IMG/VR virus record: IMGVR_UViG_2534681662_000015
Reading direction: 5' to 3' (one strand)
DNA length: 25,154 bases
Source of the DNA: a virus
Taxonomy: Duplodnaviria; Heunggongvirae; Uroviricota; Caudoviricetes
A program made the position numbers and the translations under genes. How positions within the stretch are numbered: position 1 is the first letter of the stretch; each line of letters opens with the position of its first letter. Below the pieces are notes generated by a model, which did no database searches, had not been told where the DNA came from, and saw nothing but the letters and a program-made list of their open reading frames with translations. This document shows, one piece after another, positions 1 to 21,967 of this stretch.

Positions 1-1284
1 TTACTTCTTCGCCTCTGCAACCACTTTACTACCCACGCCGCGGTTATTGTATTCCCACATGCGGTTGTAGTTAGTGTCATTCAGATTGCGCTGTATTTCG
101 TCGTTATCATCTACGCTGCCGGTATTACCCGCAAACGGACGATTAGAGATCACCGCATCGGCCCACGGTTTAGCCGTGTTAAAACCTTCGTTGATGGCGC
201 TATCACGGATCACCACCTGACCGTTGGTATTGGCATCAACATCCAGCGAGCGGCCCAGTTGCGCCACACCATCACCGAAAGCATTGAAACGGCTGTTTAC
301 GGCGAGGAAACCGTAGTAAATGTTGGACAGCGTAGCCGGTGCAAACACATACGCTTCTTGCTGAGTACGTGAGTTCACCACGCGGAATTCGGTGTTATCG
401 AACACCACTGCGCCGCGACCAGAAACGATATCCACATCCCCTTCAATGTAGCTGTTGGTCACCAGCGTACGCGGCTGACGGTTGGTTTCCAGACGGTTCT
501 GCACACCGCTGTTGGTGACAAAGAAGGTGTTCTGACGACCGAGAATGTTAACGTTGTTAATCTGTACCTGGTCACCATCAGTACGCAGTGCCACCGCCGG
601 ATGGTTACCTGCATCTACGCTATCGCCCAGCGTGTTTTCGATGGTCAGATTTTGCAGTTGCAGGCCATTGTTTTGTGACCAGAAGACCGCAGAGCAGAGA
701 ACACCGATACTGTCGCTGCGTTTGCTCTGGCAGCTATCGTACATATACCACGCTGGTTTACCTGGCATATATTTGCCGCGCGGGTTGACGTCGTGACGCC
801 AGTCGGCAGGGCTCATGCCCCCATCAAGGGAAAGCCCAATCTTCACATCAATCGGTTTTTCACCTGTACCGTACAGAGTAATTCCACCCGGAGCAGCAGG
901 GACATACACCGTTCCCTGATACTCACCAGGCATCACGGCAATATACTGGCGCTTGTTAGTGCGCTTGATAATTGCCGCATCTACCGCCGCCTGAATCGTG
1001 GTATGCGTTACACCTTGAGTACCCGCCGGGCCGACAACAAAGTCAGGTTGCGCAGGCAGGGTAATCGGGGAAGGATTCCACGCTGCAGCACCTGGTGTCA
1101 GGGATGCAAAATAGTGTTGAGCATCGAAATTCTGCGCTTCTTTTGCCGACAGAATCGGGCGAGAAGAGGTACCAGGCGCGGTTTGATCAGAAGGACGTTG
1201 ATCGGGTGGTGTTGAGCTACAGGCGGTCAGCGTCACGCCAAAAGCCAATGCCAGCGCCAGACGGGAAACTGAAAATGTGTTCAC
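1..1284 (-). CDS. ybhC: YbhC-like outer-membrane lipoprotein (pectinesterase-fold thioesterase), host gene flanking attB-lambda
   Basis: 427-aa ORF with lipoprotein signal (…GVTLTAC) and pectinesterase-like body; recognised from memory as E. coli YbhC, which borders the lambda att site. Complete; its stop codon is at the window start. Confidence 0.85.
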   Translation of the reverse strand: MNTFSVSRLALALAFGVTLTACSSTPPDQRPSDQTAPGTSSRPILSAKEAQNFDAQHYFASLTPGAAAWNPSPITLPAQPDFVVGPAGTQGVTHTTIQAAVDAAIIKRTNKRQYIAVMPGEYQGTVYVPAAPGGITLYGTGEKPIDVKIGLSLDGGMSPADWRHDVNPRGKYMPGKPAWYMYDSCQSKRSDSIGVLCSAVFWSQNNGLQLQNLTIENTLGDSVDAGNHPAVALRTDGDQVQINNVNILGRQNTFFVTNSGVQNRLETNRQPRTLVTNSYIEGDVDIVSGRGAVVFDNTEFRVVNSRTQQEAYVFAPATLSNIYYGFLAVNSRFNAFGDGVAQLGRSLDVDANTNGQVVIRDSAINEGFNTAKPWADAVISNRPFAGNTGSVDDNDEIQRNLNDTNYNRMWEYNNRGVGSKVVAEAKK

Positions 1285-2929: not shown

Positions 2930-2962
2930 TCAGATAAAAGAAATCCTCGTCAGTGCGAGGAT
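2930..2962 (-). terminator. Putative intrinsic terminator (minus strand)
   Basis: 7-bp stem ATCCTCG/CGAGGAT (2943-2949 / 2956-2962) with 6-nt loop; on the minus strand it is followed by TTTCTTTTAT. Confidence 0.35.
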
Positions 2963-3134
2963 GCTGTTCATTGCTGCTATACACTTTTTTGCTCTCAACG
3001 TAAGCGGTAGCCCATTCTGTTGGGTTGGTGCAGTTGCTTTTAGGAAATGCTATTTACCCCTTAAATGTCGGCTGAAAGAGCTAAAATCCATGCAAAAAAT
3101 TTACGCAATTTTGTGTATTATTGTGCAGTAAGTA

Positions 3135-3737
3135 ATGAGCTATTTTCTGCGCAAAAAATGGATGGTAAATTTGTCCGGGTCAGGAAAAATTTTATGGGCG
3201 CTAAACATGAAAAAAGATTCGTATCCTTATTTGATTTGCATGACAGTTTCAGGGCTGATCTTTATTTTCCTTTTCTTCTGGTGGCGGGCAGATATCTACA
3301 GGGTCACGTTTCTTAATCAGAGTATATCCCACTATTACATTCTGTTTAGCATGGGAATAGCTTTTCTGTTATCTCTGTTTTGGGTTAAGAAGGGGATAGT
3401 AAAACAAAGAGGCTGGAAGAGTCTGTCAGCATACCTTAAGGTTTATGCAGGGATGTGCATATTTGCAGGATTTTTTCTGATTATACCCCTTACGACACTA
3501 ACTTATTTTTTGCCTGGAGAGACATCGTCTTATGTTGCACCGTATCGGTATACTTCCGGTAGTTCAAAAAGTTGTTCTGGAGCTGAGGTGGATGACCCCG
3601 ATCTACATGAGAATATTCGCATTTGCTATCCGTATGGCAATTATGAGTACGATAATATTATCTATGTTGAAAAGAAAATTAATATATTAGGTGCGGTAGT
3701 GACATATGCACAGACCGCGCGTGATGATACTGAATGA
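3135..3737 (+). CDS. Hypothetical integral membrane protein (~176-200 aa; 3 predicted TM helices plus a Tyr/Cys-rich C-terminal domain); AT-rich cargo gene
   Basis: Longest ORF in an AT-rich block on the strand opposite the surrounding early-left operon. Hydrophobic segments LICMTVSGLIFIFLFFWW, YYILFSMGIAFLLSLFWV and CIFAGFFLIIPLTTLTYFL. Start is ambiguous (ATG at 3135, 3162 or 3207; none has a strong SD). Not a lambda gene that I recognise. Confidence 0.55.
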   Translation: MSYFLRKKWMVNLSGSGKILWALNMKKDSYPYLICMTVSGLIFIFLFFWWRADIYRVTFLNQSISHYYILFSMGIAFLLSLFWVKKGIVKQRGWKSLSAYLKVYAGMCIFAGFFLIIPLTTLTYFLPGETSSYVAPYRYTSGSSKSCSGAEVDDPDLHENIRICYPYGNYEYDNIIYVEKKINILGAVVTYAQTARDDTE

Positions 3738-3771
3738 TATAGTATATAGCGGGCAAGTTTTAGTTAATTTA

Positions 3772-3795
3772 TCGAGGTAATATAATTTACCTCGA
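3772..3795 (+). terminator. Stem-loop downstream of the membrane-protein gene (possible terminator)
   Basis: Perfect 9-bp inverted repeat TCGAGGTAA / TTACCTCGA around a 6-nt loop TATAAT; no clean T-run, so terminator function is uncertain. Confidence 0.35.
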
Positions 3796-3947
3796 CTCGT
3801 TTGTTCTGGTATTAATATTTCGCTTTACGACCGATTTTTATCTGATGATATCATGCGGTTTTCATATACTGACTTACTGTCTTTTCTCCGTTAGCGATTT
3901 TCTCCTGCTCAGCGATGATTTTATCTTTGGCTTCTAGTTAATTTCGC

Positions 3948-4169
3948 TCACTTCGAACCTCTCTGTTTACTGATAAGCTCCAGATCTTGCTGGCAACTGG
4001 CACAAGTCCGACAACCCTGAACGACCAGGCGTCTTCGTTCATCTATCGGATCGCCACACTCACAACAATGAGGGGCAGATATAGCCTGGTGGTTCAGGCG
4101 GCGCATTTTTATTGCTGTGTTGCGCTGTAATTCTTCAATTTCTGATGCTGAATCAATGATGTCTGCCAT
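3948..4169 (-). CDS. TraR/DksA-family C4 zinc-finger protein (73 aa; lambda Orf73-like)
   Basis: 73-aa ORF with CxxC…CxxC (CCECGDPIDERRRLVVQGCRTCASC) and an acidic N-terminal helix, the hallmark of TraR/DksA-type RNA-polymerase binders. Confidence 0.75.
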   Translation of the reverse strand: MADIIDSASEIEELQRNTAIKMRRLNHQAISAPHCCECGDPIDERRRLVVQGCRTCASCQQDLELISKQRGSK

Positions 4170-7545: not shown

Positions 7546-8235
7546 CTACCCATGCTTCCTATATGTCTGCGGCATGCTCCCAATAACCTTACCGAAGATG
7601 AACACCCGGTTCATCTCGTCTTTCTCGATCGGGTCCCACGGTGAGTAGCTTTTGTTATCAGAGATGACCAGCAGCTTATTCTTCATCATTTGCAGGCGCT
7701 TTACATGGGCTGTGTCGTCGTACAGAAACGCATAGATACCATCACCGTCGAAAGATTTAACTGTGATATCAACGAACAGCAGATCACCTGGTTCGATCGT
7801 TCCTGACATGCTGTCACCACGCACGTTAATGATGCGGATATTTTCCGCCTTCCTACCATCGAACATGTGACGAGCATCGTCAAACGAGTACTCAACCGAG
7901 CGTAGAACTTCTACAAACTCACGGTTGATGACTCCCGGCCCAGCACTGACTTCTATATCAAGAACGTCAATCTTGAAGTATTTGGAATGGCTGACAGTTG
8001 ATTGTATTGGTTGCACTGTACTGTCTGACATATTTCCAACGCCAGAAGATAACCATTCTGCGCGCACACCCAAAGCGTTCGCGATCTCCACGATTTTAGT
8101 TGTTTGATTAGCTTTCCCTGTTTCGATTTTCTGAATAGCAGCCTGGCTAACCCCGACCAAATCCCCAAGCGCCTTTTGTGTAAGGCCTCGCGCTAATCTG
8201 GCTTCTTTAAGTCTTTCTGAGAGTGTTGTTTTCAT
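7546..8235 (-). CDS. CI-like prophage repressor (N-terminal XRE-type HTH, C-terminal LexA/S24 autopeptidase domain); non-lambda immunity
   Basis: HTH segment LTQKALGDLVGVSQAAIQKIETGK; S24 signatures GDSM (Ser nucleophile) and HVKRLQ (Lys). Start taken at MKTTLSERL… (ATG 8233-8235); the ORF stays open to an ATG at 8301 that lies inside the operator palindrome. Confidence 0.85.
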   Translation of the reverse strand: MKTTLSERLKEARLARGLTQKALGDLVGVSQAAIQKIETGKANQTTKIVEIANALGVRAEWLSSGVGNMSDSTVQPIQSTVSHSKYFKIDVLDIEVSAGPGVINREFVEVLRSVEYSFDDARHMFDGRKAENIRIINVRGDSMSGTIEPGDLLFVDITVKSFDGDGIYAFLYDDTAHVKRLQMMKNKLLVISDNKSYSPWDPIEKDEMNRVFIFGKVIGSMPQTYRKHG

Positions 8236-8339
8236 AGTCCAAATGTACAACCAAGGTTTTATTCCATCAAACGAAAATGGTTGTTGACTAAAAACAACCA
8301 TAGTTTTAATCTTGATTCAAATTAACCACGGAGGTTGTT
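8236..8339 (+). promoter_or_regulatory. OR operator / PR (and divergent PRM) region
   Basis: Palindrome ATGGTTGTT-N7-AACAACCAT (8277-8301) overlapping TTGACT (8284-8289) with TAATCT 17 bp downstream; GGAGG SD precedes the cro-like ATG at 8340. Confidence 0.6.
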
Positions 8340-8639: not shown

Positions 8640-9179
8640 ATGCAACCACTTACATACCAACAGACTAGCGGATTTAGCCCGACTGCGGTGATAAATCGTT
8701 CTCAAACAAAACAGGTGCCAGGCCACGAAAAAATCCGTGATGCCGTCCGCGCCTGGTCGGCTGTAGATAATCAGGATGTCGTTGCCACACTCATTGTGAA
8801 TGAGTATCGGGAGCAGGGCGGCGGCACCATCGATTTCCCTGATGATGTCAGCCGTGCACGCCAGAAGCTGTTCCGCTTCCTCGATAACAAATTCGATTCT
8901 GAAAAATACCGAAATAATGTGCGTGAACTGACCCCGGCAATTCTGGCGGTACTACCGCTGGAATATCGCGGTTACCTGGTTGAGCAGGATAGCTTCATGG
9001 CTAGGGTGGCTGAAATGGAAAAGGAACTCAGTGAGGCAAAACAGGCTGTCATTCTCAACGCACCACGCCACCAGAAACTGAAGGAAATTAGTGAAGGTAT
9101 TGTGTCGATGTTTCGTGTGGACCCAGATCTGGCTAGTCCATTGATGGCGATGGTTACTACCATGCTGGGGGCGATATGA
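8640..9179 (+). CDS. YdaT-like protein (CII-analog regulator of Rac/CP-933P-type switch regions)
   Basis: 179-aa ORF with motifs recalled from E. coli YdaT (…REQGGG…, …LTPAILAVLPLEYR…); located exactly where lambda has cII; AGGAG SD. Confidence 0.65.
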   Translation: MQPLTYQQTSGFSPTAVINRSQTKQVPGHEKIRDAVRAWSAVDNQDVVATLIVNEYREQGGGTIDFPDDVSRARQKLFRFLDNKFDSEKYRNNVRELTPAILAVLPLEYRGYLVEQDSFMARVAEMEKELSEAKQAVILNAPRHQKLKEISEGIVSMFRVDPDLASPLMAMVTTMLGAI

Positions 9180-11847: not shown

Positions 11848-13374
11848 ATGAAAAAAGCCATAGCATATATGCGATTTTCATCACCAGGTCAGATGTCTGG
11901 TGATTCATTAAACCGCCAGAGAAGGCTTATTACTGAATGGCTAAAGGTAAATAGTGATTATTACCTTGATACCGTAACGTATGAAGATTTGGGGTTAAGC
12001 GCATTCAATGGAAAGCATGCACAATCAGGAGCTTTTTCGGAATTTTTAGATGCTATAGAACATGGTTATATATTGCCAGGGACTACATTGTTAGTTGAAA
12101 GTCTGGACAGACTTTCAAGAGAAAAAGTCGGTGAAGCGATTGAGCGTCTGAAATTGATTTTGAATCACGGTATTGATGTTATAACTCTTTGCGATAATAC
12201 AGTCTATAATATTGACTCATTGAATGAGCCATATTCATTAATAAAAGCCATACTTATAGCACAAAGGGCAAATGAAGAAAGCGAGATAAAGTCAAGTCGG
12301 GTTAAATTATCATGGAAGAAAAAACGGCAGGATGCACTGGAGTCAGGCACGATTATGACGGCGTCTTGTCCGAGATGGCTCTCATTGGATGACAAAAGAA
12401 CGGCTTTTGTTCCAGACCCCGACAGGGTGAAAACTATTGAGCTAATTTTTAAACTCAGGATGGAAAGGCGCTCATTGAATGCAATAGCCAAGTATTTAAA
12501 TGATCATGCTGTAAAGAATTTCTCAGGAAAAGAAAGTGCATGGGGACCTTCTGTAATTGAAAAATTATTAGCGAATAAAGCTCTGATAGGTATATGCGTA
12601 CCTTCATATCGTGCAAGAGGTAAAGGAATAAGTGAAATCGCTGGCTATTATCCCAGAGTCATATCAGATGATTTGTTTTACGCTGTGCAGGAAATTCGGT
12701 TGGCACCTTTTGGTATTAGCAATAGTAGCAAAAATCCTATGTTGATAAATCTACTTCGAACAGTTATGAAGTGCGAGGCTTGTGGTAATACCATGATTGT
12801 TCATGCGGTATCTGGAAGTTTGCATGGCTATTATGTTTGTCCGATGAGAAGACTGCATCGATGTGACAGGCCATCAATAAAGAGAGATTTGGTTGATTAT
12901 AATATCATTAATGAGTTGCTTTTTAATTGTAGTAAAATCCAACCAGTTGAAAACAAGAAAGATGCTAATGAAACTTTAGAGTTGAAAATTATTGAGCTCC
13001 AGATAAAAATTAATAATTTAATTGCTGCATTATCTGTTGCGCCTGAAGTTACCGCTATAGCAGAAAAAATCAGAGTATTAGATAAGGAATTACGAAGGGC
13101 TTCTGTATCATTAAAAACTTTGAAGAGTAAAGCGGTGAGTTCACTTGGTGATTTTCATGCTATTGACTTAACCAGTAAAAATGGGCGAGAGCTATGTCGT
13201 ACACTTGCCTATAAAACATTCGAAAAAATCATAATCAATACAGATAATAAAACCTGTGATATCTATTTTATGAATGGCATTGTTTTTAAACACTATCCTT
13301 TAATGAAAACAATATCTGCCCAGCAGGCGATAAGTACTCTCAAATATATGGTTGATGGTGAGGTTTATTTTTGA
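11848..13374 (+). CDS. ybcK: Large serine recombinase (resolvase/invertase catalytic domain plus recombinase and zinc-ribbon domains), DLP12 YbcK-like
   Basis: 508-aa ORF; N-terminal catalytic motifs AYMRFSSPGQ (Ser nucleophile) and ESLDRLSR; Cys cluster CEACGNTMIVHAVSGSLHGYYVCPMRRLHRCD; AT-rich gene with its own upstream AT-rich promoter region. Confidence 0.85.
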   Translation: MKKAIAYMRFSSPGQMSGDSLNRQRRLITEWLKVNSDYYLDTVTYEDLGLSAFNGKHAQSGAFSEFLDAIEHGYILPGTTLLVESLDRLSREKVGEAIERLKLILNHGIDVITLCDNTVYNIDSLNEPYSLIKAILIAQRANEESEIKSSRVKLSWKKKRQDALESGTIMTASCPRWLSLDDKRTAFVPDPDRVKTIELIFKLRMERRSLNAIAKYLNDHAVKNFSGKESAWGPSVIEKLLANKALIGICVPSYRARGKGISEIAGYYPRVISDDLFYAVQEIRLAPFGISNSSKNPMLINLLRTVMKCEACGNTMIVHAVSGSLHGYYVCPMRRLHRCDRPSIKRDLVDYNIINELLFNCSKIQPVENKKDANETLELKIIELQIKINNLIAALSVAPEVTAIAEKIRVLDKELRRASVSLKTLKSKAVSSLGDFHAIDLTSKNGRELCRTLAYKTFEKIIINTDNKTCDIYFMNGIVFKHYPLMKTISAQQAISTLKYMVDGEVYF

Positions 13375-17020: not shown

Positions 17021-18103
17021 TTAGAACTGGTAAACCATACCTACAGCAACGATATCATCGGTAGCAACGCCAGATGCTTTCGTGAAATCGCTCTTATCAA
17101 TCAGGTTGATTTTGTAATCAACAAAAGTGGACATATTTTTGTTGAAGTAATAGGTTGCACCTACATCAATATATTCAACCAGGTCCTGATCACCCCACGC
17201 ACCCAAGTCTTTTCCTTTAGATTGCAGGTAAGCAACGGACGGACGCAGACCGAAGTCGAACTGATATTGTGCAACTACTTCGAAGTTTTGTGCTTTGTTG
17301 GCAATATGGTTATTACCAAAAACAGTCATGTTCTGGGTTTCAGAATAGGTGGTAGCCAGATAGATGTTGTTCGCATCATATTTCAGACCAGCTGCCCATA
17401 CTTCAGCATTTTGACCAGATGCATTCAGGCTGTTGTTACCGTAGATAACCTGATTATTAGTGCGGTCAGATTTAGCATAGGTTGCACCTACACCGAATCC
17501 TTCATACTCATAAGTAGTGGAGAAACCGAAACCATCACCATTAGCTTCAGTTACGTCAGTGCGGTCATTTTTACCCTGATACTGAGCAGCAAAGTTCAGA
17601 CCATCAACCAGACCAAAGAAGTCATTGTTACGATAAGTTGCAACACCTGTGGTGCGACCAGTCATGAATACATCTGTTTGGGTCCAGGTATCGCCACCGA
17701 ATTCTGGCAGAACGTCGGTCCATGCACCAATATCGTATGCTACACCGTAGTTACGGCCATAATCGATGGAGCCGTAGTCACCGAATTTCAGGCCAGCGAA
17801 GGCAAGACGGGTTTTATCTTTGGAGGAACCTTGAGATTCAGCGCGGTTGCCTTTGAATTCATATTCCCACTGACCGAAACCAGTCAGTTGATCGTTGATT
17901 TGGGTTTCACCTTTGAAGCCAAGACGGGCATAAGTAGTATCACCATCATCTGCATCATTAGAGGAGAAGTAGTGCTTAGCATTAACTTTCCCGTACAGAT
18001 CCAGCTTGTTACTGTCTTTATTATAAATTTCAGCTGCCTGAGCAGACATCGCCATCAGTACTGATGCAGCTACAGCAGAAATTGCCACTGTTAATTTTTT
18101 CAT
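17021..18103 (-). CDS. nmpC: Outer-membrane porin NmpC/Lc-type (OmpC/OmpF family), prophage cargo
   Basis: 360-aa protein with signal peptide [23 protein letters not shown], porin body and C-terminal …VAVGMVYQF; the ORF-track entry starts 20 codons upstream. Confidence 0.9.
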
Positions 18104-18530
18104 CGTGAGCCCTTTTTTTGAACTATTATTAAAAAATGATGTCACTGCGCGATAAATATTCATCTAATCAATGTGATTATTTCAAGATGTAAGTTTTGGT
18201 TTCTCATTTGATTTGTGAAGTAGATCTCTATTTTTATCTGAACTTTTTCTATCGAATCCTATTCATGGCTCTTGGCTGAATAAAAATAAATCTATTAGCC
18301 AATTTATATTAATGGCTGTTATTTATAAGTGCTCTATAATTTGAAGGTTCAATTTAAACCAGCTAAAAATAACGCTGGAAATTATTTGTTGGTTATTTGT
18401 TGAGATTTGCTTATGTATTTGTAGTGGTGTTTTCAATACTCGGTAGCATTCTCGCAAATATCATTTAGTGGTTTACGTACGTAAAAAATTGGTTATGCTG
18501 TTAAGAGTGGTTACTTCGTCACACAGCTTA

Positions 18531-18690: not shown

Positions 18691-18906
18691 ATGAAATCCA
18701 TGGATAAGTTAACAACGGGTGTCGCCTATGGCACCTCAGCAGGTAGTGCCGGTTACTGGTTTTTACAGCTGCTCGATAAAGTCACGCCCTCACAGTGGGC
18801 AGCAATAGGTGTGCTGGGTAGCTTGGTATTTGGCCTGCTGACGTACCTGACAAACCTTTATTTCAAGATTAAAGAAGATAAGCGCAAGGCTGCGAGAGGT
18901 GAATAA
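18691..18906 (+). CDS. essD: Pinholin (phage 21 S-type class II holin), dual-start MKSM motif
   Basis: 71-aa protein [71 protein letters not shown] with two TM segments; AGGTGGGG SD. Confidence 0.85.
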
Positions 18907-19403
18907 TGCCTCCATCATTACGAAAAGCCGTTGCTGCTGCTATTGGTGGCGGAGCAATTGCTATAGCATCAGTGTTAATCACTGGCCCAAGTGGTAACGA
19001 TGGTCTGGAAGGTGTCAGCTACATACCATACAAAGATATCGTTGGCGTATGGACTGTATGTCACGGGCATACAGGAAAAGACATCATTCCCGGTAAAACG
19101 TATACCGAAGCAGAATGCAAAGCCCTCCTGAATAAAGACCTTGCCACGGTAGCCAGACAAATTAACCCGTACATCAAAGTCGATATACCGGAAACAACGC
19201 GCGGCGCTCTTTACTCGTTCGTCTATAACGTGGGCGCAGGCAATTTCAGAACATCTACTCTTCTTCGCAAAATAAACCAGGGCGATATCAAGGGCGCATG
19301 TGACCAGCTACGTCGCTGGGCATACGCTGGCGGTAAGCAATGGAAAGGCCTGATGACTCGTCGTGAGATTGAGCGTGAGGTCTGTTTGTGGGGGCAACAA
19401 TGA
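18906..19403 (+). CDS. rrrD: SAR endolysin (lysozyme with N-terminal signal-anchor-release domain)
   Basis: 165-aa ORF; Gly/Ala-rich N-terminal SAR segment [18 protein letters not shown] followed by a lysozyme domain; overlaps the pinholin stop. Confidence 0.9.
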
Positions 19404-19867
19404 GCAGGGTAACCGCGATTATCTCCGCTCTGGTTATCTGCATCATCGTCTGCCTGTCATGGGCTGTTAATCATTACCGTGATAATGCAATCGCCTACAA
19501 AGAACAGCGCGATAACAAGGCCAGTGAACTGGAGAAGGCGAACGCCACCATTACTGACATGCAGCAGCGCCAGCGTGATGCTGATGCACTCGATGATAAA
19601 TACACGAAGGAGTTAGCTGATGCGAAAGCTGAAAATGATGCTCTTCGGCGCAAGCTTGATAATGGTGGTCGGGTGCTCGTCAAAGGAAAATGCCCTGTGC
19701 CATCCTCAGCCGAAACCTCCAGCGCCTCCGGCATGGGCAATGATGCCACCGTCGAACTCTCTCCAGTTGCTGGACGAAACGTTCTCGGTATCCGGGACGG
19801 AATTATCCGCGACCAAACAGCACTGAGAACGCTTCAGGAATACATCAGGACGCAATGCCTTCGATGA
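19400..19867 (+). CDS. rzpD: Spanin inner-membrane subunit (Rz)
   Basis: N-terminal TM segment ([18 protein letters not shown]) then coiled-coil-like charged region; ATGA overlap with the endolysin stop. Confidence 0.85.
19620..19826 (+). CDS. rzoD: Spanin outer-membrane lipoprotein subunit (Rz1), embedded in the +1 frame of Rz
   Basis: Lipobox LIMVVGC and proline-rich segment [16 protein letters not shown]; lies entirely within rzpD in another frame. Confidence 0.7.
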
Positions 19868-20358: not shown

Positions 20359-20769
20359 TTAGTGCGGAAATATTTGTGTAGTGTTCTGAATGTTCTCAGT
20401 AAAGAGTAATGAATTATCAAAGGTATAGTAATACCTTTTGTTTTCGTGGATATTTGTAATCCATCTGAAAACCCCTGCTGTAGCAAGATTTTTCCTGTAT
20501 TCGTAAAATGATAACTCTCCTGATTTGAATCCTTTTAAGGTGGCTTCTATAAGGCATTTATTTTTTGAAAATCTTACATTTACAACCTTACCCTGTCCTT
20601 TTATTAAAACCGTATTATCGTTTTCAAGAACAAGATGAATATTCTCTGTAGCTAAATAGTAAATGTAATGTGAGACATTGTGACGTTTTAGTTCAGAATA
20701 AAACCAGTGATAGTTTAAATTATTTCGCACTTTATCGAATATTTGTTTAAAAATGGCAACCTGAGCCAT
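20359..20769 (-). CDS. ybcV: YbcV-like protein (DUF1398; DLP12 putative envelope protein)
   Basis: Protein [58 protein letters not shown]… recognised as YbcV-like; the ORF-track entry starts 5 codons upstream. Confidence 0.75.
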
Positions 20770-20825
20770 TGTAGTACCTTCCATGTGATATGAGGGGCGT
20801 AGTCTGCACGATTATCTAAATTGCT

Positions 20826-21270: not shown

Positions 21271-21447
21271 CGCGGGTTTTCGCTATTTATGAAAAATTTC
21301 CGGTTTAAGGCGTTTCCGTTCTTCTTCGTCATAACTTAATGTTTTTATTTAAAATACCCTCTGAAAAGAAAGGAAACGACAGGTGCTGAAAGCGAGCTTT
21401 TTGGCCTCTGTCGTTTCCTTTCTCTGTTTTTGTCCGTGGAGTGAACA

Positions 21448-21967
21448 ATGGAAGTCAACAAAAAGCAGCTGGCTGACATTTTCGGTGCGAGTATCCGTAC
21501 CATTCAGAACTGGCAGGAACAGGGAATGCCCGTTCTGCGAGGCGGTGGCAAGGGTAATGAGGTGCTTTATGACTCTGCCGCCGTCATAAAATGGTATGCC
21601 AAAAGGGATGCTGAAATTGAGAACGAAAAGCTGCGCCGGGAGGTTGAAGAACTGCGGCAGGCCAGCGAGGCAGATCTCCAGCCAGGGACTATTGAGTACG
21701 AACGCCATCGACTTACGCGTGCGCAGGCCGACGCACAGGAACTGAAGAATGCCAGAGACTCCGCTGAAGTGGTGGAAACCGCATTCTGTACTTTCGTGCT
21801 GTCGCGGATCGCAGGTGAAATTGCCAGTATTCTCGACGGGATCCCCCTGTCGGTGCAGCGGCGTTTTCCGGAACTGGAAAACCGACATGTTGATTTCCTG
21901 AAACGGGATATCATCAAAGCCATGAACAAAGCAGCCGCGCTGGATGAACTGATACCGGGGTTGCTGA

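Follow-up and report, generated by a model that had tools for sequence, protein, structure and literature searches.

Several small phage proteins are known to keep the genome of an incoming phage out of the cell. T4 Imm and Sp and lactococcal Sie2009 are membrane-anchored proteins whose extracytoplasmic part prevents genome delivery, and Sie2009 is encoded near the integrase gene and expressed from the prophage. HK97 gp15 blocks DNA entry (cited in PMC6832061), and P22 SieA, an inner-membrane protein of 162 to 164 amino acids (aa) with three helices, blocks DNA injection (PMC10883804). Here, we describe a gene that may belong to this class of proteins. It lies in a stretch of 25,154 nucleotides from a virus of the Caudoviricetes (IMG/VR record IMGVR_UViG_2534681662_000015); we refer to the whole stretch as the window. 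Positions 2963 to 3935 of the window are a moron, that is, an autonomous mobile unit in the exo-xis accessory slot of a lambda/434-like prophage, and we are highly confident that its cargo gene is autonomous and mobile and encodes a real membrane protein. The best explanation overall, that this moron makes an envelope-level superinfection-exclusion protein, is offered tentatively, since we give it rather less than an even chance.

When compared with lambda by BLAST, the window loses homology at position 2962 and regains it at 3936. Between these breakpoints lies a cassette of 973 bp (2963-3935, plus strand), compared with 1024 bp in lambda between the same two points, and its GC content falls to 0.34-0.41 across positions 3000 to 3900, versus 0.45-0.55 in the flanks. 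In lambda, this place is taken by ea8.5 and ea22, which are flanked by orf55 and by the unannotated orf73, and these two flanking genes border the cassette in the window as well, with 96% and 97% identity at the amino acid level. The initial annotation, which was made from the sequence of the window, had described an AT-rich cargo gene in the ea8.5/ea22 slot on the opposite strand from its neighbors, and this description was borne out by the drop in GC content, by the position of the open reading frame (ORF) on the plus strand against the int to exo operon, and by the breakpoints and flanking genes. The span that it gave to the insert, 2963 to 3947, was almost exact, but the last 12 bases (3936-3947, minus strand) are retained ea22 codons; in this remnant, lambda homology has already resumed, and the minus-strand translation contains the first codons of ea22, 'SEIN', followed by a stop.

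The cassette is nearly identical in phages 434 (98.5%), mEp332 (99.5%), and 2B8 (98.6%), and in the 434 annotation it corresponds to CPT_434_35 and CPT_434_36, 'putative membrane protein'. In PhiR70_1, which is a close relative of the whole prophage, the slot is empty: neither the cassette nor ea8.5/ea22 is present, and the distance between xis and the TraR gene is only about 300 bp. A core mobile unit of 758 bp (3070-3827, plus strand), which includes the candidate promoter, the coding sequence, and the downstream hairpin, is common to P2-like prophages of E. coli; for instance, it aligns with the gpQ-gpA hotspot of the APEC17 P2-like prophage at 76.6% DNA identity over 761 aligned columns. 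The unit is therefore a moron on three grounds: it is present or absent among close phage relatives with sharp junctions (lambda and PhiR70_1 versus 434, mEp332, and 2B8), its base composition deviates from that of its surroundings, and it has spread horizontally among unrelated phages. The moron layout proposed initially thus stands, given the recurrence of the promoter-gene-hairpin unit in P2-like prophages and the empty slot of PhiR70_1.

The gene is widely carried. Copies covering at least 80% of its length are found in 962 of 5426 complete E. coli genomes (about 18%), including those of O157:H7, in which it is ECs0804 of the defective prophage Sp3/CP-933K, and of O104:H4 C227-11, and the lambda-type copies in E. 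coli are annotated as 'hypothetical protein' in all the matches listed. Other carriers are Shigella sonnei, Salmonella, and Klebsiella. On viral contigs of IMG/VR (n = 79), the gene occupies lambda-type exo-xis loci in 64 cases and P2-type loci in 14. A further context is a single copy next to an integrase, at the edge of another element. The exo-xis slot is used in the window, 434, mEp332, 2B8, and O157 Sp3, while the copies in P2-like prophages always lie between the portal gene gpQ and the replication gene gpA. The P2-type proteins are 71% and 59% identical to ours in Salmonella, 56% in Klebsiella, and 78 to 79% in E. coli, and the range is 51 to 79% when the IMG/VR contigs are included. 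The cos-proximal gpA-gpQ locus is the old/tin site, a hotspot of anti-phage systems (Rousset et al. 2022, PMC9122126). No neighboring gene is conserved across all these contexts, which indicates a single-gene unit, and a search for a conserved neighbor of the chromosomal copies, as a clue to function, gave nothing consistent.

Some individual neighborhoods may still be recorded, the first two of them as single observations. In a Serratia metagenome-assembled genome (MAG; L035, 5877-8510), a chromosomal homolog directly follows ptsG, the product of which is the inner-membrane receptor used by HK97. In Phytobacter and Kosakonia (L027, L029, and L033), the homolog lies near a gene of about 1235 aa, the N-terminus of which presumably resembles DUF4062 and STAND NTPases. 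In a Klebsiella P2 hotspot (L013, 2281-5623), a divergent 790-aa AAA_16 gene lies about 380 bp upstream of the homolog and is followed by a 279-aa gene without a Pfam domain; these two genes look like an unclassified two-gene defense candidate sharing the hotspot. Finally, JARKOR010000073.1 (L019), a 3.5-kb contig of a 'Candidatus Nanosynbacter sp.' MAG, encodes a protein identical to the cargo protein of the window, together with exo and bet at 97 to 99% aa identity, and is almost certainly a binning contaminant in that MAG.

The initial annotation placed the cargo gene at 3135-3737, and a plus-strand ORF of 200 aa does exist there, but its start had to be corrected. Judging from comparison with homologs, the true start is most likely the ATG at 3207, which gives a coding sequence of 176 aa (3207-3737, plus strand, stop included) that agrees with the start shared by all divergent homologs, with the pattern of selection, and with the AlphaFold2 model. 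Homologs below about 80% identity all begin at the methionine equivalent to residue 25 of the 200-aa ORF, the P2-borne copies of E. coli have two in-frame stops directly upstream of the methionine equivalent to 3207, and in most P2-type copies of IMG/VR the upstream frame is closed within 3 to 9 codons. Among close relatives, the in-frame upstream extension (3135-3206, plus strand) shows one or two differences, all of them non-synonymous; those within 3207-3737 are mostly synonymous. The extension is probably untranslated and holds the candidate promoter, whose presumed transcription start near 3178 is downstream of both the ATG at 3135 and the TTG chosen by the annotators of 434, which disfavors these two starts. 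We rejected both because of the homolog starts, the upstream stops, and the promoter motif inside the extension.

The over-long model has had consequences for other annotations. PGAP and RefSeq label the P2-borne copies in E. coli as 'hypothetical protein, frameshifted', since the 200-aa reference model carries 24 non-coding codons upstream of the gene. We checked two of the flagged P2-like loci (L018, 3956-4531, and L038, 3057-3632), and in both the 176-aa ORF is intact, so that the label cannot be taken as a sign of gene decay. Intact P2-borne copies are thus called pseudogenes and have likely been lost from protein-based surveys of defense islands. Database entries of 112 and 128 aa match C-terminal parts of the same protein beginning at internal starts, and they are probably alternative gene calls. 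A 56-aa ORF annotated upstream of the cargo gene in 434 (CPT_434_35) and mEp332 (2961-3131, plus strand) is probably not a gene: it is absent from all P2-type and chromosomal copies, two-thirds of it are outside the shared mobile unit, with only its tail inside 3070-3827, it has no PHROG or Pfam match, and both of its differences among relatives are non-synonymous. We therefore discarded it as an operon partner, as it does not travel with the cargo gene and shows only non-synonymous differences.

A promoter of its own would be expected of a stand-alone unit, and a candidate extended -10 element, TGGTAAATT, is found at 3163-3171 on the plus strand, where it matches the motif TGnTAnnnT 44 to 48 nt before the ATG. 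The motif is present at this distance in the window copy and in six of the seven P2-type copies examined (seven of eight phage-borne copies), the Klebsiella P2-type copy being the one without it, and it also occurs in the Citrobacter, Pantoea, and Erwinia copies despite the divergence of the surrounding sequence. From this conservation, we infer that the motif acts as a promoter with a transcription start near 3178, although a generic promoter scan did not call the site. An imperfect inverted repeat, TTGTGCAG-N18-CTGCGCAA (3121-3128 and 3147-3154), overlaps the -35 region of the proposed promoter, and its left half, the TATTGTGCAG box, is kept in the P2-borne copies of E. coli and Salmonella; the repeat (3121-3154) may be an operator for some regulator. 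The annotators of 434 marked a site with the CII consensus (TTGY-N6-TTGY), which maps to positions 3111-3124 of the window (TTGT-N6-TTGT). We rejected a CII-activated promoter here, as the site is poorly spaced from the -10 element and P2-borne copies have not kept it; in DNA this rich in A and T, the match probably arose by chance. A search of the cassette with Rfam found no known RNA element.

Two hairpins had been described as bracketing the gene, and both were recovered by a terminator scan. The one on the left (2943-2962, minus strand), a terminator-like structure with the tail TTCTTTTATC, is in the lambda-homologous flank and is the feature annotated as 'terminator t-L4' in the int-xis record of 434 (M60848). 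It is part of the pL operon and lies at the left edge of the substitution, so that this conserved tL4, in contrast to the initial description, is not a part of the cassette. The one on the right (3772-3795, plus strand) is a stem-loop of nine perfect pairs and a 6-nt loop, 35 nt past the stop codon, with a folding energy of -12.9 kcal/mol (z = -3.3 versus shuffles) and an interrupted U-tract. The P2-borne copy of APEC17 keeps it with one compensatory change from A-T to G-C and one mismatch, and it is probably a weak terminator or 3' stabilizer of the cargo transcript.

The coding sequence appears to be maintained. The ratio of non-synonymous to synonymous substitution rates (dN/dS) is 0.10 to 0.16 between phage-borne copies, at a dS of about 2, and 0.34 between Enterobacter species, and by this measure the phage-borne copies are under purifying selection. 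Loss or disruption of the ORF in relatives, which the initial annotation had named among the outcomes that would refute its proposal, is not what we found: 76 of the 79 copies on viral contigs are intact, and three are disrupted. The gene has also outlasted the phages that carry it. In Sakai Sp3, ECs0804 is intact while int and bet are pseudogenes, and in strain NE92, the gene is intact while exo is split by IS1203, and this persistence in decayed prophages points to selection at the level of the host.

The predicted product is a small multi-pass membrane protein, as the initial annotation had proposed, and both hydropathy and AlphaFold2 show three hydrophobic helices followed by a soluble C-terminal tail, which places the protein in the membrane by prediction. 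The AlphaFold2 model of the full protein, built from a 24-sequence alignment, has a predicted local distance difference test score (pLDDT) of 87, with helices at approximately residues 5-29, 38-61, and 71-101, a strand in loop 1 (34-36), and a five-stranded beta-barrel at approximately 105-171; the C-terminal 79 residues modeled alone give the same five-stranded barrel, with a pLDDT of 89.6. The loop-1 strand is paired with the C-terminal sheet in the model, which implies that both are on the same side of the membrane. Across 35 family members, the net charge is +1.4 at the N-terminus, +0.4 in loop 1, and +2.9 in loop 2, while the C-terminal domain is neutral in the family average and net acidic (-6) in the window copy. 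By the positive-inside rule, these counts would put the N-terminus inside and the C-terminus outside, and the barrel is thus predicted to face the periplasm. The tail of about 75 residues, which had been called Tyr/Cys-rich, is indeed rich in tyrosine (9 of 75), but it has only two cysteines and is predicted to be a folded barrel. These two, C123 and C140 in the 176-aa numbering, flank one beta-hairpin and probably form a disulfide in the periplasm; no other residue is invariant across the 35 diverse members. Conservation is highest in the barrel, with 51% identity to the reference compared with 22 to 40% for the helices, and the barrel is therefore likely the business end of the protein.

A profile search over 1.84 billion cluster representatives retrieved 57 relatives, of which the full-length ones are about 170 aa long and share one architecture. 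The named members come from Enterobacterales and one Pseudomonas, and no characterized family emerged in connection with any of the 57. Searches of Pfam, NCBIfam, PADLOC, PDB sequences, and Rfam gave no significant match; in Pfam, neither SieB nor any other family reached the curated cut-off. The match to PHROG 1416 ('unknown function') is confined to the 88 C-terminal residues, and the existing annotations in databases say nothing beyond 'hypothetical' or 'putative membrane protein'. Homology to a known non-defense protein, which would have spoken for another role, was likewise absent from the family and structure searches. We also considered a class I holin. Such holins have three helices in about 100 aa, are encoded in the lysis cassette, and end in a short charged cytoplasmic C-terminus; the cargo gene lies in the exo-xis slot, on the opposite strand and with its own candidate promoter, and its product ends in a 75-aa barrel predicted to be outside the cytoplasm, so we rejected this possibility.

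How might such a protein act? Superinfection exclusion or abortive infection was the tentative suggestion of the initial annotation, and the genomic context favors it. We suppose that the cargo protein would be made from the repressed prophage, from its own extended -10 promoter and against the direction of the pL operon, and with pL off in the lysogen, no antisense transcription would read through the gene. The three helices would anchor a compact periplasmic module, formed by loop 1 and the five-stranded OB-like barrel and probably held by one disulfide, and this domain would interfere with the delivery of an incoming phage's DNA at the inner membrane. The result would be exclusion of the P22 SieA, HK97 gp15, or T4 Imm type, and its targets would probably be phages other than lambda itself. 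We favor superinfection exclusion because the unit is stand-alone and apparently constitutive, because its conserved part is predicted to be periplasmic, because the P2 slot is the old/tin hotspot and the gene is retained in dead prophages, and because its size and helix count resemble those of P22 SieA. Furthermore, the lack of a conserved partner gene is more in keeping with a constitutive blocker than with a sensor-effector system. For some anti-phage role, whatever its form, the balance seems to us to be even, and for the specific entry-blocking mechanism it tips modestly to the negative side.

Several observations weigh against superinfection exclusion. In six Enterobacter species, a homolog of 36 to 45% identity is found at one fixed chromosomal site, adjoining GGDEF and AI-2E-transporter genes and with no prophage, and other homologs are at variable non-phage sites in Serratia, Pantoea, Erwinia, Citrobacter, Phytobacter, Kosakonia, Pseudescherichia, and Klebsiella; these chromosomal homologs without a prophage could mean that phages borrowed an ordinary envelope function. 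Plating of lambda on 434 lysogens is normal. DNA entry requires ManYZ in lambda as well as in 434 (PMC6832061). Taken together, the plating result and the common requirement suggest that ManYZ-dependent entry is probably not blocked. Residence in the hotspot is an enrichment for defense only, which raises the prior without being proof, and Rousset et al. observed defense for only three of eight additional cloned systems from the P2 hotspot (PMC9122126). The searches for a known defense relative were also negative. The 5027 models of PADLOC-DB 2.0 gave nothing at E ≤ 1 for the cargo protein, the 56-aa ORF, or the flanking genes, and no PHROG annotated as exclusion matched. When the profile of the 35-member family was compared by hhalign, the probability was 0.2% over eight aligned columns for P22 SieA and 1% for P22 SieB, and the SieA motif FxRYPxEAxxFNK is absent from the family alignment. 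We thus rejected homology to SieA or SieB, and by these profile comparisons, the cargo protein is not a member of the SieA family. In addition, for ECs0804 and its orthologs in 434 and mEp332 we found neither RNA-seq nor proteomic data. There was also nothing on the cargo gene in the literature on 434 exclusion, mEp332, the exo-xis region, and the PhiR phages, and no entry for it in the supplements of two papers on the P2 hotspot.

The chromosomal homologs also recommend a different reading, in which the gene is a lysogenic-conversion or host-fitness factor unrelated to phage and the anchored periplasmic barrel binds or shields a component of the envelope. It could confer, for instance, immunity to a periplasmic bacteriocin or a contact-dependent toxin, tolerance of envelope stress, or an advantage in colonization, comparable to lambda bor and lom. 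The fixed site shared by six Enterobacter species, the scattered non-phage copies in Serratia, Pantoea, Erwinia, Citrobacter, Phytobacter, and Klebsiella, and the intact gene in decayed prophages would all fit this reading, which we nevertheless consider somewhat unlikely: Pfam and NCBIfam show no similarity to immunity families of colicins, contact-dependent inhibition (CDI), or the type VI secretion system (T6SS), no toxin gene is consistently adjacent, and the phage-borne copies are specific to two accessory slots, of which that of P2 is enriched for anti-phage genes (PMC9122126). It is less plausible still, and in our opinion quite improbable, that the protein acts after entry through abortive infection, as a membrane effector that depolarizes or permeabilizes the infected cell in the manner of RexB, SieB, or the effectors of CBASS, Thoeris, and retrons. 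The extracytoplasmic barrel conserved above the helices would be odd for a pore-former, and no sensor or partner is conserved across contexts, since the gene travels alone; the AAA_16 and 279-aa genes near the Klebsiella copy, and the gene of about 1235 aa adjoining the Phytobacter copy, with its presumably DUF4062-like N-terminus, are the neighbors that could be such partners. The transmembrane proteins of hotspot systems are usually deemed suicide effectors (PMC9122126), but PADLOC gave no match here, and the match found in BFVD, to a 'SMODS-associating 2TM beta-strand rich effector', is not significant (E = 0.32).

A role in the life cycle of the phage itself, replacing ea8.5/ea22 in modulating the lysis-lysogeny decision or induction, would explain why the gene is exactly in their position. 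It would also accord with the CII-consensus site marked at 3111-3124 and with the effects of exo-xis genes on lysogenization and induction described in two reports (PMC3824215 and PMC7093339). Nevertheless, we regard it as very unlikely, because the gene is on the strand opposite to the early operon and thus not co-expressed with the exo-xis genes, the same unit is cargo in P2-like phages with a different regulatory circuit, homologs are also found where no phage is near, P2-borne copies do not keep the CII-like site, and a membrane protein with a predicted periplasmic domain is unlike Ea8.5 and Ea22. Lastly, one could ask whether the ORF is functional at all or is only an ORF that arose by chance in AT-rich DNA, or a pseudogene in decay, as might be thought from the 'frameshifted' flag of PGAP, the three disrupted copies among 79, and annotations that stop at 'hypothetical' or 'putative membrane protein'. 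Conservation effectively refutes this idea: the supposed frameshift is an artefact of the 200-aa model, dN/dS is low at a high dS, the 57 cluster representatives have one architecture, and the AlphaFold2 fold is confident. Superinfection exclusion is the reading that we carry forward, and it is conceivable, if somewhat doubtful, that the protein is the founding member of a new family of single-gene, envelope-level anti-phage proteins that shuttle between the exo-xis and old/tin slots and have been domesticated in the Enterobacter species sampled.

The window as a whole shows a lambda-like prophage integrated at the attachment site of lambda. Its left end is ybhC (1-1284, minus strand), which is found on the equivalent side because the window is an integrated prophage; in phage 434, the b region by attP holds a gene annotated as an NleC-like type III effector zinc metalloprotease (434 record 1-590, outside the window). 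Then follow int (1419-2489), xis (2467-2685), and the 55-aa ORF that forms the left flank of the cassette (2725-2892; lambdap35 or 434 ORF55; PHROG 676, E = 5.5e-40), all on the minus strand. The right flank is a 73-aa TraR/DksA-type zinc-finger gene (3948-4169, minus strand; Pfam zf-dskA_traR, E = 1.5e-8), which is the counterpart of lambda orf73. To the right of it are homologs of orf61, orf63, and orf60a, then exo and bet, and farther right a cI-like repressor, replication genes, a serine recombinase, a porin gene, and a DUF1398 gene.

Some of these genes deserve mention in their own right. A gene at the cII position (8640-9179, plus strand) has a YdaT_toxin domain (E = 8.8e-30) and is preceded by a LexA-like repressor with HTH and S24 domains (7546-8301, minus strand), and together they indicate an immunity region that is Rac/YdaS-YdaT-like, not that of lambda or 434. 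The nin region contains a 508-aa large serine recombinase with Resolvase, Recombinase, and Zn_ribbon_recom domains (11848-13374, plus strand), placed between the replication genes and what we presume to be the late-gene regulator; such cargo is unusual at this position, as the prophage already has the lambda tyrosine integrase. A general porin gene of 380 aa (17021-18163, minus strand; Porin_1, E = 3.7e-153), annotated as 'OmpD' in related PhiR phages, is on the opposite strand upstream of the presumed lysis genes; it counts as a second moron of the window, one that could change which receptors are available. Two ORFs (18906-19403 and 19388-19867) are taken for the lysis cassette solely by their position downstream of the porin gene. 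Near the late region, there are two further opposite-strand ORFs, one of the DUF1398 family (20359-20784, minus strand; E = 3.3e-43) and one of 179 aa without a Pfam match (21349-21888, minus strand).

As an element, the cassette is thus ordinary: it is a moron that occupies a known accessory slot and carries an uncharacterized protein family which is narrowly distributed yet very prevalent. It shows concretely how the same cargo unit can be exchanged among the chromosome and the accessory slots of two temperate phage families that are unrelated to each other. If it does exclude phages, it would be a widespread determinant of phage sensitivity, with a bearing on the prediction of host range in phage therapy and on prophage ecology, and it would be among the commonest prophage-borne defenses in E. 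coli, unnoticed in phage 434 since the 1950s. Its inner-membrane-anchored periplasmic barrel would then be a new structural solution among the few entry-blocking proteins. Should the function turn out to be mundane, the unit is still a tidy, ordinary moron.

Compared with described systems, the cargo gene shares single traits with many of them. HK97 gp15 is likewise encoded by a lambdoid moron and is a small inner-membrane protein expressed from the prophage, but it is much smaller, single-pass, and encoded in the tail-gene region, and no PHROG or Pfam link connects the two, which we set apart without a direct comparison. T4 Imm and Sp and Sie2009 differ from the cargo protein in helix number and fold, as judged without structural comparison, and share no Pfam or PHROG match with it. 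SieB of lambda and P22 and lambda RexB are also small multi-pass membrane proteins, expressed from the prophage under promoters of their own in the early-left region (P22 annotation); they act by abortive infection, and RexB needs its partner RexA, whereas the cargo gene has no conserved partner and its product no homology to P22 SieB. With lambda ea8.5 and ea22, it has in common the slot between orf55 and orf73 and the status of a dispensable accessory gene, but it differs from them in its strand, its own candidate promoter, its unrelated sequence, and its product, a membrane protein instead of a cytoplasmic regulator. Old is a nuclease and Tin targets T-even replication, so that neither of these P2 proteins is a membrane protein, and neither is related in sequence to the cargo gene; the likeness is one of place, as homologs of the cargo gene occupy the same cos-proximal gpA-gpQ hotspot (PMC9122126). 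A close counterpart is P22 SieA, even though its function is proven where that of the cargo protein is inferred and its genomic slot is a different one. Like the cargo gene, sieA is prophage-encoded, stand-alone, and transcribed against its neighbors from its own promoter (PMC10883804; P22 annotation), and the cargo protein, with 176 aa and three predicted helices, is of similar size. What sets the two proteins apart is the conserved part, which in SieA is a motif predicted to be cytoplasmic (PMC10883804) and in the cargo protein a predicted periplasmic barrel with two invariant cysteines.

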